A DNA stretch of 64,000 nt from Candidatus Kapaibacterium sp. (GTDB lineage: Bacteria; Bacteroidota; Ignavibacteria; Kapaibacteriales; UBA4661), in NCBI GenBank assembly GCA_025455065.1, contig JALONG010000017.1, positions 4,294-68,293 on the forward strand, in the 5' to 3' direction. Both the position numbers and the translations under genes were made by a program. Below, piece after piece: positions 24,919-61,477 of this stretch. The stretch's first letter is position 1. Each line of letters opens with the position of its first letter. The notes under the pieces were generated by a model. It did not search any database. It was not told where the DNA came from and worked only from the letters and a program-made list of their open reading frames with translations.

Positions 24919-26061
24919 ATGCACCTTCATTCCAAACTTCCAACCGTCGGCACGACAATTTTCACATCAATGTCCCATTTGGCGAGTGAATACAATGCCA
25001 TCAATTTGGCACAGGGATTTCCCAATTTTGCTCCGCCACCCAAACTTCTCTTATCGGCAGCAAACGCCATGCAACGGGGATTAAATCAATACGCTCCCAT
25101 GGCAGGTTATGTGCCGCTTCGGGAGCGGATTGCCGAAAAAATCGAATACTGCTATGGAAGACGCATAAACCCAGATTCAGACATTACGGTTACACCGGGT
25201 GGCACGGCGGCTCTCTTTGCAGCCATGATGAGCGTCGTTCACAAAGGCGATGAAGTGATTGTGCCGGAGCCGTGTTATGATTCGTATTTGCCGACATTGG
25301 AACTCTGCGGAGCGCTCATTAAGCGAGTTCCGATGAAATTTCCCGACTACTCAATAGATTGGGACAGAGTTCAAACGCTGGTTTCACCAAAAACGCGGAT
25401 GATTATCATCAACACGCCGCATAATCCCACCGGAAGCATCCTCCGCAAAGCAGATATGGAGCGCCTCTCAGCCATTGTTCGTAATACCGACATCATGATT
25501 TTGAGTGATGAAGTCTATGAGCATATCACCTTCGACGGCGAGGCGCACCAAAGCGTTCTTCGCTACAATGACCTCGCGGAACGCAGTTTTGTCGTGTATT
25601 CCTTTGGAAAACCGTTTCACGTAACGGGCTGGAAAACAGGCTATTGCGTGGCTCCTGCCGAACTTATGCGGGAATTTCGGAAGGTCTATCAGTACATGAA
25701 TTTTGCTTCTTTCACTCCCGCACAAGTCGCATTTTCTGAACTGTTAAGCAATAAAGAGCAATACGAATCACTACCGGAATTTTATCGGCAAAAACGAGAC
25801 CTCTTTCAAGACTTGATGCGGTCTTCAAGGTTTGAATTTTTTCCTTCTCACGGCTCATATTTCCAACTTGCACGCTATTCGGACATTTCCACGCTTAATG
25901 ACGCAGAATTTGCTGTTTGGCTCACCACAACGCACGGTGTGGCTGTTATTCCCGTCTCGGCTTTTTACCGCGATTCCACCGATAATCACGTTGTTCGTTT
26001 TTGCTTCGCCAAGACCGACGAAACCTTGGAAAAAGCTGCTGAAGCACTTTGTAAAATATAA
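24919..26061 (+). CDS. class I/II PLP aminotransferase, YbdL/methionine-aminotransferase-like
   Basis: SKLPTVGTTIFTSMSHLASEYNAINLAQGFPNF N-terminus and the PLP-lysine block YSFGKPFHVTGWKTGY. Confidence 0.85.
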   Translation: MHLHSKLPTVGTTIFTSMSHLASEYNAINLAQGFPNFAPPPKLLLSAANAMQRGLNQYAPMAGYVPLRERIAEKIEYCYGRRINPDSDITVTPGGTAALFAAMMSVVHKGDEVIVPEPCYDSYLPTLELCGALIKRVPMKFPDYSIDWDRVQTLVSPKTRMIIINTPHNPTGSILRKADMERLSAIVRNTDIMILSDEVYEHITFDGEAHQSVLRYNDLAERSFVVYSFGKPFHVTGWKTGYCVAPAELMREFRKVYQYMNFASFTPAQVAFSELLSNKEQYESLPEFYRQKRDLFQDLMRSSRFEFFPSHGSYFQLARYSDISTLNDAEFAVWLTTTHGVAVIPVSAFYRDSTDNHVVRFCFAKTDETLEKAAEALCKI

Positions 26062-26095
26062 GGTCACATTGTTCCGCGTCTATATCAATAATTCC

Positions 26096-27205
26096 ATGAA
26101 AAAATTCTTTCTCACCCTCGCACTCCTCTTGGGAGCGCTTGGAATCACTCTTTTTGCCGTATTACAGATGAAACCTTTTGGAAAAAATCCCACGGGCAAA
26201 CGTTTAGAACGTGTTCAACAATCACCACATTACCGCGACGGGAAATTTCAAAATCTTTCCGAAACGCCGATGATGACTGGCGATAACGCGCTTTGGGACA
26301 GTCTCCGTGAATGGGTTTTCGAGCGGCAAAACACAGAACCACCTGCGAAAATTCCTTCTCAAAAAACCGACCTCAAAAATCTCCCCGAAGGCTCACCACA
26401 GCTTGTTTGGTTTGGTCATTCGGGGTATTTGCTAAAACTGAACAGCTTAACGATTGCGATTGACCCGATTTTAGCGGAAAGTATTTCTCCTGTGCCGGGG
26501 TTTATGAACTCCTACAACGGCTCATTTCTCTATACCCCTGAAGATATGCCGCCGTTGGATGCCATCATCATCACGCACGACCATTATGACCACCTGAATT
26601 ACGAAACCATTACCGCACTCAATAGCCGTACAAAGCGCTTCATTACTGCTTTGGGTGTGGGTGAGCATTTGGAGTATTGGGGAATTGAGCCGGCAAAAAT
26701 CATGGAACTTGATTGGTGGGAAAGCATTGCAATCACTGATTCCGTCAGGCTTACAGCGACTCCGGCACGGCACTTTTCGGGCAGAGGAATAATCAACGAT
26801 AAAACGCTTTGGGCTTCGTTTGTACTGCAAACGCCGCAGAAAACCTTGTATCTCGGCGGTGATTCGGGTTACGATTCGTTTTTCAAAACGATTGGCGAGA
26901 AATTTCCGGGAATAGATTTGGCAATCATGGAGTGTGGGCAGTACAATAAAAAATGGGCGCTCATTCATTTTATGCCCGAAGAAACCGTACAAGCCGCATT
27001 AGACCTTGGCGCGAAGGCTCTCATGCCTGTTCATTGGGGACGATTTACGCTGGCTTCGCATCTGTGGAATGAACCGATTGAACGTGCCGCAAACGAAGCA
27101 CATAAGAGCGGTTTACCGCTTTGCACACCACAAATCGGGGAGCGCGTTGAACTTGATAAAACCTTGCCAAATAAGCAGTGGTGGAAACTGGTTTTAGCGG
27201 AATGA
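26096..27205 (+). CDS. MBL-fold metallo-hydrolase (NAPE-PLD-like), membrane-anchored
   Basis: HxHxDH motif ITHDHYDHL and an N-terminal TM/signal (MKKFFLTLALLLGALGITLF). The ATG at 26096 is chosen because the longer ORF overlaps the aminotransferase. Confidence 0.8.
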   Translation: MKKFFLTLALLLGALGITLFAVLQMKPFGKNPTGKRLERVQQSPHYRDGKFQNLSETPMMTGDNALWDSLREWVFERQNTEPPAKIPSQKTDLKNLPEGSPQLVWFGHSGYLLKLNSLTIAIDPILAESISPVPGFMNSYNGSFLYTPEDMPPLDAIIITHDHYDHLNYETITALNSRTKRFITALGVGEHLEYWGIEPAKIMELDWWESIAITDSVRLTATPARHFSGRGIINDKTLWASFVLQTPQKTLYLGGDSGYDSFFKTIGEKFPGIDLAIMECGQYNKKWALIHFMPEETVQAALDLGAKALMPVHWGRFTLASHLWNEPIERAANEAHKSGLPLCTPQIGERVELDKTLPNKQWWKLVLAE

Positions 27206-28681: not shown

Positions 28682-29782
28682 TTAGAAGAATACAACGGTA
28701 TTCGGGTTTATTCCAACATCAAAACGTCGCACAATCGTCCCGTCTATGCGGCGTACAATCACTTCTCCGTTGGTTGAAAAATCTCGTGCATTGGTAATCC
28801 ACAACTCGGAAGAACGCGGATGCACTCCCAAGCCGTACCAAAACTCGTTCATCGCCGTTCTGCGCACGGCAATAGTGGGTTTTGCATCGGTTTGACGAAG
28901 TGTAAGGAGTTCCACGCCGCTATCACCTAAGTAAAACAGCGTGTCTCCGGTCGAAGAGAAATTTAGTGCGGAAGGAGATTTCATGCGCCATCTCCGGAGT
29001 TCTTGCAAATTCGCAGCATCAAATTCCACAATACCGCCCAGAGAATCACGCGACATAGGCAAATGCCTGTATGCGGCATATAATCTCGTTTTTGAGCGAT
29101 TTGTCACAACATCACCTGCATTGGGTAAACCGGCAATAGTGCGAATTTCTCGGCGTGTTGCCAAGTCCACCACCGAAAGCGTTCCTGCTTTGGGTTCATT
29201 TGCACGAAAATCACCAAAACCGGAATTTGCAACAACAACATACTGCGACGTAGCAGCAATGCCCTCCGGTGCCGGTCCTACGGCAATGCGTGGTGTTCTT
29301 ATGGTGAAGGTGCGCGGGTTAATTTCCGTGATGCTGTCGTCAATGTTGGAAACGTAGGCGGTCGTATCGTTCACAATGACCATTTTACGCGGCTCTTGTC
29401 CCATTTGCGGCATACGAATACGCCCCAACGAAACGCCACTGGAAGCCCTGATAACCTCAATACTCCGCGAAGTTGAAACAACAACGTAGAGCGTATCACC
29501 TTTCAAAACCATATTATTCGCCGTATCACCAATGCGCAAGCCCGGATTTACCCGTGCAAAAAAATCTTGCGTTACCATGCCTGAAGCAGCATCAAACCTC
29601 GCAAGCGTCGAATTATCCTGCCGCCACAAACCTTCCGCCAAAATGTATGCGCCCTGCACCGAAGCCGGAATCGGGTCAGGCTGAACAGGATTTTGACCAC
29701 AACCAACAACAAACCACACCAAACCAAGCAATAACGCCACCTTTCGCACTAAATACCAGCGCGAAACAACAAATTGGAACAT
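28682..29782 (-). CDS. YncE/YVTN-type beta-propeller surface lipoprotein
   Basis: Lipobox VVGC after a signal peptide. Repeated ...YV.N..d.sv.vid blades (LYVVVSTSRSIEVI, AYVSNIDDSITEIN, YVVVANSGF..., LSVVDL...). It lies downstream of the cobalamin riboswitch. ATG at 29782 (GTG at 29803 is possible). Confidence 0.7.
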   Translation of the reverse strand: MFQFVVSRWYLVRKVALLLGLVWFVVGCGQNPVQPDPIPASVQGAYILAEGLWRQDNSTLARFDAASGMVTQDFFARVNPGLRIGDTANNMVLKGDTLYVVVSTSRSIEVIRASSGVSLGRIRMPQMGQEPRKMVIVNDTTAYVSNIDDSITEINPRTFTIRTPRIAVGPAPEGIAATSQYVVVANSGFGDFRANEPKAGTLSVVDLATRREIRTIAGLPNAGDVVTNRSKTRLYAAYRHLPMSRDSLGGIVEFDAANLQELRRWRMKSPSALNFSSTGDTLFYLGDSGVELLTLRQTDAKPTIAVRRTAMNEFWYGLGVHPRSSELWITNARDFSTNGEVIVRRIDGTIVRRFDVGINPNTVVFF

Positions 29783-30059
29783 AACAATTCCCTTACAAAA
29801 CACGCTGCAATGCCAGTTGCAGCCAAAATAAAAAAGACGAGGAAGGAAACGAAGAAGGGATAAAGGATAGGGGAAAAGGAATAAGGGCTGAAAAGCGCTT
29901 CAATACTTGCCGCTACTGGTGTCAGCGCATATTGAGTCGCGTTCTCGCTCCTCGTTCAATTTCCACAAATCACGATATTTTGTGAGATTTCCTCATCGCA
30001 TCCGTTGGCGCGGATGGTCTTGCAGAAACAAAATGAATTAGCGTTTCTGAAGACGTGAT

Positions 30060-30250
30060 GAGCATTGTAGGCAGGTCTTCCGGCTTAGGAGTCGTCCTTC
30101 GTGTTTGCCTTCCCACAAGTATTTGTGCTGCTTGCAGTGGCATTGGGGTAAAACACGTTGTCGTCCCTTACGGCGGCGCAACCGCGTAGGAATGGAAAAA
30201 TGTAAACAACACTTTTCGCACCTAACTTCCCTATTCTCGCTTTTACGCAT
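30060..30250 (-). promoter_or_regulatory. cobalamin (B12) riboswitch aptamer
   Basis: The minus strand reads AATAGGGAAGTTAGGTGCGAAA ... GCGCCGCCGTAAGGGA ... TGCCACTGC ... GTGGGAAGGC ... B12 box AGCCGGAAGACCTGCC (30085-30070). Every conserved block of the RF00174-type consensus is present in the right order; compare E. coli btuB AATAGGGAATCCAGTGCGAA...GCGGTAAGG...CACTGCC...GGGAAG...AAGCCCGAAGACCTGCC. Confidence 0.85.
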
Positions 30251-60790: not shown

Positions 60791-61477
60791 TTATGGTGTA
60801 AATGTGGCGTAATGTTGAAAGCTAATCACACGCTCGGTTGCGGCGAAAAAAGGCTGCATTGCTGGAAGAGTTTCTGCTTTTTTTGGAGCATTTTGCGCAA
60901 CCTCAAGCGATGCCCACACAACTACATCGACAAAAATACTTGGGTCTTTATGATCTTGTAACACCGTTCGAGAAATAAAACCCTGAAAGTTTTCCAATTC
61001 CTTGGTAACATCGTTGCAAATTTTAGCATAATCAGCAAGATTGCTTTGCTTGATTTGATACATCACAACTTCGGTAATATTCTGTTTGTTATTCATGATT
61101 TTTTTTGGTTTTTTGGGTGAATACAATGGTAAAAAATCTCCGTAGGCATAGACAGAATCAATGCTTTGGATGAAGGGAGCAAATGTACGGTCGGTTTTAA
61201 CACGTTGTGCTGCTTTTTCGGCATTTGAAGCGTTTCTCCAGAGAACAATGTCCACATAAACGCCTGTTTCTGCAACGGAAGCCAAGGTTTGGTAAGTTTG
61301 AAAACCCTCTAAGGAGGCAATATTCTTCCGAAACTCTCTCAAATTATTGAGAAACTGCCCCTGCTTTTCAGGGCGAATGTGATACACGGCGATTTCTGTT
61401 GCTTGTTGTCGGTTCTGTGCAAGAGCCGCGCCGCAAGAAAAAAACAACAATGTAGAAAAAATCAAAATGTCACGCAT
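60791..61477 (-). CDS. secreted protein with two ABM (antibiotic-biosynthesis-monooxygenase-like) domains
   Basis: Signal peptide, then two ferredoxin-like halves of about 95 aa (EIAVYHIRPEK...; EVVMYQIKQSN...). Confidence 0.55.
   Translation of the reverse strand: MRDILIFSTLLFFSCGAALAQNRQQATEIAVYHIRPEKQGQFLNNLREFRKNIASLEGFQTYQTLASVAETGVYVDIVLWRNASNAEKAAQRVKTDRTFAPFIQSIDSVYAYGDFLPLYSPKKPKKIMNNKQNITEVVMYQIKQSNLADYAKICNDVTKELENFQGFISRTVLQDHKDPSIFVDVVVWASLEVAQNAPKKAETLPAMQPFFAATERVISFQHYATFTP

Follow-up and report, generated by a model that had tools for sequence, protein, structure and literature searches.

What does a cobalamin riboswitch control when no transporter gene follows it? The question arises from a 64,000-nucleotide (nt) stretch of contig JALONG010000017.1 of Candidatus Kapaibacterium sp. 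(the window, to which coordinates refer unless another locus is named), in which a riboswitch stands before minus-strand genes for a beta-propeller lipoprotein and a secreted leucine-rich repeat (LRR) protein. An earlier note on this DNA had likened the lipoprotein to BtuG, the corrinoid-capturing protein of Bacteroides, and had considered B12 control of the LRR gene. Our results establish the lipoprotein as a true homologue of BtuG, a distant new member of the family, and the locus as the known Bacteroidota B12-capture system in a new arrangement, with btuG monocistronic and unlinked from btuB. The most likely function of the lipoprotein is the capture of corrinoids for a transporter encoded elsewhere. 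To the explanation as a whole, i.e. a B12-repressed btuG unit, capture for a transporter acting in trans and a separate LRR gene, we assign a probability of about 60%.

According to this explanation, positions 30338-28612 of the minus strand would form a self-contained B12-repressed unit consisting of a promoter, a class-I riboswitch with a junction extension, a 230-nt leader, btuG and a terminator. At low cellular B12, BtuG would be synthesised, lipidated and sent to the outer membrane, where its propeller would bind corrinoids (cobalamin and probably cobinamide) in the central pocket, as BtuG1 does, and would hand them to a TonB-dependent transporter (TBDT) encoded elsewhere in the genome. 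The LRR gene, a clade-specific and strictly conserved neighbour, would be transcribed from its own promoter behind the btuG terminator, mostly independently of B12. The elements concerned are:

30338-30317, minus strand: promoter-type motif CCGAAAATTCGTTGTAACTTGG with a Bacteroidota-like -7 box, 13 nt 5' of the aptamer
30304-30053, minus strand: cobalamin riboswitch aptamer RF00174 (cmscan against Rfam)
30085-30070, minus strand: B12 box AGCCGGAAGACCTGCC / AGCCGGAAGACCUGCC, a conserved box within the aptamer
30062-29992, minus strand: predicted three-way-junction extension 3' of the aptamer (folding and alignment of lineages)
29888-29825, minus strand: C/U-rich, G-poor leader tract holding UUCCUUCCUCGUC (29848-29836, located by exact match)
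29823-29795, minus strand: leader hairpin GCUGCAA-CUGGCA-UUGCAGC plus GUGUUUUGU (hairpin scan; 7-bp stem at 29823-29804)
29794-29788, minus strand: Shine-Dalgarno (SD)-like AAGGGAA, a purine run 5' of btuG
29782-28682, minus strand: btuG-family lipoprotein gene, 366 aa, seven-bladed beta-propeller (Pfam, phmmer against the PDB, AlphaFold2/Foldseek)
28657-28612, minus strand: intrinsic terminator after btuG, GCCGUAAAGC...GCUUUACGGC then UUUUUU, predicted free energy -20.1 kcal/mol
28584-28564, minus strand: promoter-type motif CCAAAGTTTTCCGTAATTTTG, about 40 nt 5' of the LRR start codon
28522-27365, minus strand: gene for a secreted LRR protein, 385 aa, about 14 repeats (Pfam LRR families)
27315-27294, minus strand: terminator-like hairpin after the LRR gene, a 9-bp stem then a T-rich tail

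The riboswitch and the BtuG-family lipoprotein

The riboswitch is genuine. The aptamer scores 74.3 bits in cmscan against Rfam, compared with a gathering score of 31.5 (E = 1.9e-16), spans the full RF00174 model (positions 1-189 of 189) and is the sole Rfam family found in the 64-kb window; in its full length and its B12 box it resembles other class-I cobalamin riboswitches. The earlier note had recognised a complete aptamer including the B12 box, and running the RF00174 check it had suggested bears this out; the extent it gave, 30250-30060, lies on the aptamer but misplaces the 5' end, which is about 50 nt farther out. In the lineages L003, L004, L007 and L008 (homologous loci are cited here by such numbers) the orthologous riboswitches reach 60-86 bits, and a riboswitch precedes BtuG in every close lineage with sufficient sequence.

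An extended promoter motif, CCRAR-n-TTY-n-TAnnTTKG, occurs five times in the window, compared with 0.3 in shuffled sequence. Its minus-strand copies, at 34805-34783, 33822-33802, 30338-30317 and 28584-28564, precede a DUF2911 gene, a gene for an 817-aa protein, the riboswitch and the LRR gene, respectively; the fifth lies at 61282-61300 on the plus strand. The shorter form TAnnTTTG is about 2-fold enriched in intergenic DNA, where 7 of 10 copies aim at a nearby start. The extended motif may be the form that housekeeping promoters take in this organism. Its copies before the riboswitch and the LRR gene had been overlooked in the earlier note, as had the terminator at 28657-28612.

The lipoprotein matches PF16819 (DUF5074) at 36.9 bits (gathering score 27.2) over profile positions 1-328 of 353. 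Comparison by phmmer with all PDB sequences gave 12 matches and nothing else (E = 1e-27, to BtuG1, to 1.6e-16), all of them B. thetaiotaomicron BtuG1, BtuG2 or BtuG3, or else 3DSM, the homologue from B. uniformis; two structural papers served to check the PDB codes. An AlphaFold2 model built with 47 homologues (predicted local distance difference test, pLDDT, 93.3; predicted template modelling score 0.87) was compared with the PDB by Foldseek and matched 16 BtuG structures before any other fold (E = 3e-25 to 1.5e-22; target template modelling score 0.82-0.87), the next being an archaeal YVTN propeller at 4e-17 and BtuK1 at 2e-13. The structural comparison that had been proposed thus favours BtuG.

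Mapping of the published corrinoid contacts of BtuG by profile alignment revealed that the E-G-x-aromatic motif is retained as E50-G51-L-W53, the aromatic residue being Phe in BtuG, together with N89, R132, S187-G188, N221, Y238, Y316 and F335. The contacts mostly follow the BtuG1 pattern, and some BtuG2-specific ones differ; E50, G51, S187 and G188 are invariant in 47/47 homologues. Corrinoid binding by the window protein is a well-supported prediction, because contact residues, family match and fold are all kept, and the suggestion of a BtuG-like corrinoid binder now stands more firmly than when first made, with homology apparent in sequence (E = 1e-27), fold and binding-site residues. As a side observation, at residue 49 (29638-29636) the Cys of the family's ILCEG, which 90% or more of the 47 homologues have, is Ala in the window protein (ILAEG).

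With the B. thetaiotaomicron proteins (the propeller domain of BtuG1/BT1490, BtuG2/BT1954 and BtuG3/BT2095) the window protein shares DUF5074, the seven-bladed propeller, the E-G-x-aromatic motif with most polar and aromatic corrinoid contacts in the BtuG1 pattern, a lipobox Cys (...LVWFVVG|C28; all homologues examined have a lipobox) and expression behind a cobalamin riboswitch. It differs in being only 20-26% identical and from Kapaibacteria rather than Bacteroidia, in lacking acidic export-signal-like residues right after the Cys, and in having no BtuH domain fusion; its gene forms a monocistronic unit in a locus that lacks btuB, btuH and btuFCD, and is followed by a conserved LRR gene. Understanding of BtuG has so far been confined to gut Bacteroides, where it is a tightly bound lid on BtuB; the family and its control by a B12 riboswitch extend to environmental Kapaibacteria and Ignavibacteria.

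The riboswitch leader

Folding, and alignment of leaders from lineages whose first genes differ, indicate that the riboswitch runs on 3' of P1 into a conserved three-way-junction module. Its closing helix pairs CUCAUC (30062-30057) with GAUGAG (29997-29992) and encloses a variable hairpin (30054-30017), the sequence of which differs per lineage and pairs in all, and an invariant hairpin, CAUCCG-CGCCAA-CGGAUG (30016-29999), which is a candidate P13/L13. The junction is the minimum free energy (MFE) fold in 4 of 5 lineages folded separately, and the fifth, L008, still forms both hairpins. In an alignment of 11 sequences, 97% of cells pair, versus 29-44% with slid partners, and two positions show compensatory changes. 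The module was found in 12 lineages, TBDT-linked operons among them.

Class-I cobalamin riboswitches can have expression platforms in which L5 and L13 form a kissing loop. The window is similar in having a conserved hairpin directly 3' of P1 with a loop, CGCCAA, that could pair with the UUGCG of L5 (GG-UUGCG-CC); it differs in that the hairpin is set within a three-way junction beside a second, variable hairpin, and in that the start codon lies about 210 nt beyond, past a C/U-rich tract. We sought covariation between the loops across the lineages and found none; L5 never varies, and the kissing loop is putative.

Further 3', GAUGAGGAA is complementary to UUCCUUCCUCGUC / UUCCUCGUC in the C/U-rich tract, and this pairing is present in the MFE fold of the leader. 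Within the tract, CCUCGUC (29842-29836) is kept in the window, L003, L004 and L013 despite a diverged and indel-rich spacer around it; the distal hairpin and the SD-like purine run are kept in the same four. The distal hairpin is part of the riboswitch leader and not of btuG, because a different first gene follows it in L004.

These elements suggest a pairing switch by which the riboswitch could act across the 230-nt leader. On ligand binding, the junction helix CUCAUC:GAUGAG would become fixed and the distal C/U tract, with its CCUCGUC, would be released; expression would then be turned off, either by loading of Rho on the C-rich, G-poor tract or by masking of the SD-like AAGGGAA. The expression platform, which had seemed unclear in the earlier note, thus has a conserved structural extension, with action over the leader proposed on the basis of complementarity. 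Riboswitches control Rho-dependent termination in the Mg2+ mgtA and flavin mononucleotide ribB leaders. Like these, the window leader is long and has a C-rich, G-poor stretch that may be gated by alternative pairing; unlike them, it is known from sequence alone, and a similar tract precedes an unrelated gene.

The earlier note's hairpin, GCUGCAA/UUGCAGC (29823-29804) with GUGUUUUG after it, is indeed there, and might itself be the riboswitch's intrinsic terminator, with attenuation replacing the pairing switch and its Rho or SD-masking step. Its place, hairpin and U-run together, 20 nt 5' of the btuG start codon, and its conservation in L003, L004 and L013 as a leader element whatever the first gene are consistent with this. 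Nevertheless, the stem has merely 7 bp and the U-run is interrupted, the tail in L004 (UCCUUUCC) is not U-rich, about 230 nt separate the hairpin from the aptamer with no conserved antiterminator identified, and the conserved loop GGCA suggests a different role. We consider attenuation unlikely and prefer the pairing switch. The locus offers a compact natural case for the study of a cobalamin riboswitch acting over a 230-nt leader.

The missing transporter and the operons of relatives

That no TonB receptor follows the riboswitch, as the earlier note had remarked along with the lack of an ABC transporter or cob/cbi gene, is locally correct: the window was searched with a TBDT profile and with Pfam, and the latter found no btuCDF, cob/cbi or B12-dependent enzyme genes among its other large open reading frames (ORFs). 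The 817-aa upstream protein, considered as a hidden transporter, was rejected; it has no Pfam or NCBIfam match, and no TBDT profile match was found anywhere in the window.

We compared the context of 90 homologous loci, taken from encoding contigs and from a scan of reference genomes, the latter giving 80 loci, all in Kapaibacteria/Ignavibacteria-type metagenome-assembled genomes. At 29-46% BtuG identity the common order is riboswitch, beta-propeller with a type IX secretion system (T9SS) tail (a BtuG paralogue), TBDT, T9SS-tailed protein of about 295 aa, and BtuG, the TBDT consisting of Plug plus barrel (Pfam). Operons of this type are:

L020, 3109-9080: riboswitch, propeller, TBDT, small protein, BtuG
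L062, 3629-9071: the same order
L090, L034 and L059: likewise

These distant relatives resemble the canonical Bacteroidota B12 operons (riboswitch-btuB-btuG with BtuH/J/K) in having a riboswitch, propeller paralogue, TBDT, small protein and BtuG, and differ in that their accessory proteins carry T9SS C-terminal sorting domains rather than lipoprotein signals. The accessory binders of these relatives seem to be exported by the T9SS, in contrast to the lipoproteins of Bacteroides. Because the distant operons carry a TBDT, the BtuG family is likely to work with a BtuB-type transporter.

Closer to the window, about 10 distinct lineages, those with at least 56% BtuG identity plus L008 at 53%, form what we term the LRR clade. 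All have an LRR gene directly after BtuG, and all have an upstream riboswitch where sequence suffices; the proposed check on co-occurrence of the gene pair with B12 riboswitches thus found them together. Within the clade the operon becomes shorter: the order is riboswitch-cobT-cobS-cobC-propeller-small protein-BtuG-LRR in L007, riboswitch-propeller-small protein-BtuG-LRR in L008, L004 and L013, and riboswitch-BtuG-LRR in L003 and the window. The clade has lost the TBDT, and the window has also lost both accessory genes. Since the distant relatives keep the riboswitch-TBDT-BtuG operon, comparison of gene orders indicates that the BtuB-less state is a derived loss from that canonical form. The entire clade has retained a riboswitch-controlled btuG after btuB left the operon, and the loss coincides with gain of the co-located LRR gene.

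Several observations weigh against our explanation. With regard to the transporter, a profile built from the relatives' TBDTs found none in a six-frame translation of the 64-kb window, none lies within 8-10 kb on either side in any of the approximately 10 LRR-clade lineages, and in gut Bacteroidetes btuG is present in 106/109 btuB operons. An acidic residue within +1 to +6 of the Cys is found in 2/9 LRR-clade versus 17/18 TBDT-linked BtuG homologues (Fisher p = 3e-4, uncorrected for phylogeny). In the leader, conservation of the distal pairing partner is limited to the four closest lineages, and a C/U tract similar to that before btuG (14920-14887, minus strand) directly precedes an unrelated Crp/Fnr-type regulator gene (14883-14209); as a result, the tract may be a general feature of 5' untranslated regions, and its reading as an anti-SD element is weakened. 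Behind btuG, the strong terminator is confined to the window lineage, the promoter box before the LRR gene is present in 0/4 more distant LRR-clade lineages, and both kinds of signal, terminator and promoter, are called from sequence only.

Acidic residues after the Cys are the Bacteroidota lipoprotein export signal that has been described for BtuG. The window protein reads C-GQNPVQPD, and because such residues are lacking its surface exposure is uncertain; the pattern in the clade is a weak hint of loss of the signal. BtuG of the uncoupled clade might therefore no longer be a transporter lid but a stand-alone corrinoid binder, e.g. a periplasm-facing lipoprotein serving as store or chaperone. 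Such a role would fit the absence of a TBDT from every LRR-clade locus, the acidic-residue contrast and an adjoining LRR protein that is probably periplasmic. We regard it as very doubtful: the export consensus comes from other Bacteroidota and may not be that of Kapaibacteria, the statistic ignores phylogeny and L003 has an Asp at +2, a diderm cell still requires an outer-membrane route for a 1.3-kDa corrinoid, and it is simpler to suppose that the transporter gene lies elsewhere in the genome. With BtuB acting in trans, the locus would just be a known system with its genes dispersed; otherwise BtuG would have a role that needs no transporter.

Among the relatives' partner proteins, the T9SS-tailed family of about 295 aa (approximately 30 homologues, e.g. 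L008:9010-9957 and L013:7040-8017) has no Pfam domain; its motif SLG-GG-I-VGF...DF-I-xN...AEP-V-VSKD is common to the BtuH-like domain of BtuG1 (residues 433-498, E = 5.8e-5). Its AlphaFold2 model (pLDDT 89) gave poor global matches only in a fold search, 8BLW_B coming 47th and BtuH2 being absent from the list. Sequence comparison of the relatives' 355-aa and 470-aa partner proteins gave no PDB match. In L007 (8575-14034; a 56% relative) the small partner has an N-terminal Cys-rich CWC domain. L010, L030, L041, L047, L055 and L057 have a BtuG context with neither riboswitch nor TBDT in view: four small genes, an opposite-strand gene of about 182 aa (DUF6580 in L010), a small T9SS-tailed protein and BtuG. 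Many records titled 'uncultured Hyphomicrobiales' (L020, L022, L025, L028 and others) carry Kapaibacteria-type BtuG loci, and the names look wrong.

The LRR gene and the neighbouring genes

Both genes that the earlier note had placed after the riboswitch, the lipoprotein gene at 29782-28682 and the LRR gene at 28522-27365, are borne out, the LRR start being confirmed by alignment of orthologues. The LRR protein matches LRR_8 (131 bits), LRR_14 (137 bits) and LRR_4, the three ranging over 124-137 bits, and a PDB sequence search returned a generic solenoid of the SHOC2/LRRD1/Leptospira-LIC type. It forms one orthologous family with the LRR proteins next to BtuG in the relatives, all having a Sec signal peptide cleaved at A-x-A|Q, conserved N- and C-terminal caps, and neither lipobox nor T9SS tail; the protein is thus probably periplasmic, as judged from these signals.

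The adjacency of BtuG and LRR genes is real and reciprocal across about 10 lineages: when the LRR alignment was used to scan metagenomes in the reciprocal direction, true orthologues (identity of 42% or more) turned up at 5 loci, each with BtuG directly upstream, as against 0/48 weaker LRR proteins detected. Identities to the window proteins also run in parallel (LRR/BtuG: 83/87, 76/68, 64/67, 54/53 and 42/56%).

Whether the pair is transcribed together is another matter. The 159-nt spacer between the genes contains both the terminator and the promoter-type motif. By free energy the terminator, 65 nt after the btuG stop codon, comes 7th among the 74 terminator-like sites of the window; a simple terminator scan overlooked it owing to its long loop, and folding found it. 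A -7-type box occurs at the equivalent place upstream of the LRR gene in 8/9 lineages with at least 66% BtuG identity. In the window, the riboswitch and btuG most likely make up one transcription unit and the LRR gene another, and the LRR gene is probably not B12-controlled, because the terminator and the promoter-type motif intervene. B12 control of the LRR gene, raised in the earlier note, finds no support in the window, given that the -20.1 kcal/mol terminator and a copy of the recurrent motif stand between the genes. In older lineages co-transcription of btuG and the LRR gene is possible.

Conservation of the pair might nonetheless reflect a functional two-protein corrinoid module, with the LRR protein as adaptor or dock for BtuG and with read-through or co-transcription giving partial B12 control. 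The LRR gene lies directly after BtuG in all of the approximately 10 lineages at 56% identity or more and in L008 at 53%; the reciprocal scan and the parallel identities are as expected for partners; the pair persists as flanks change, L007 being followed by a major facilitator superfamily (MFS) gene and an M23 peptidase gene and L016 being different again; LRR gain coincides with TBDT loss; and in the four more distant lineages the LRR gene lacks a promoter box of its own. Against the module stand the strong terminator and promoter motif between the genes in the window, and the plain Sec signal of the LRR protein, which without lipobox or T9SS tail is probably in another compartment than a surface BtuG. 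Moreover, no LRR protein has been described in any Btu system in the literature, and the clade is narrow, so that the synteny could partly reflect shared descent. We therefore view the module as somewhat unlikely, and retain separate units as the preferred reading. A further proposal, that BtuG, uncoupled from BtuB, handles corrinoids by a new route together with a secreted LRR protein dedicated to it, is quite improbable in our view; it could take the form of a periplasm-facing BtuG with an LRR chaperone, or of an LRR protein docking BtuG to a different outer-membrane partner. If true, the LRR family would be the first LRR component of a vitamin-uptake system.

The genes flanking the riboswitch, btuG and LRR genes are as follows:

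33743-31290, minus strand: gene for a secreted 817-aa protein, upstream of cobC; no family match
31231-30956, minus strand: 91-aa ORF upstream of cobC
30953-30366, minus strand: cobC, alpha-ribazole phosphatase (TIGR03162, 165.1 bits with a cut-off of 162.9; His_Phos_1)
24919-27205, plus strand: genes for a methionine aminotransferase and a metallo-beta-lactamase-fold hydrolase, convergent to the LRR gene

The position of the riboswitch just downstream of a cobC-like gene, as first described, agrees with the TIGR03162 score (165.1 versus 162.9). Relatives carry cobT-cobS-cobC at the position of the window cobC, which is in a separate upstream unit and not riboswitch-controlled; its presence fits a corrinoid-salvaging lifestyle. 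Homologues of the 817-aa protein (814-886 aa) hold the same position in L003 and L004. The downstream aminotransferase was considered as CobD and rejected, since it is a methionine aminotransferase (NF006569, 584.6 bits). The aminotransferase and hydrolase genes keep their position in L003 and L004, and the aminotransferase gene also in L008. In L007 the LRR gene is closely followed by the MFS transporter and M23 peptidase genes on the same strand.

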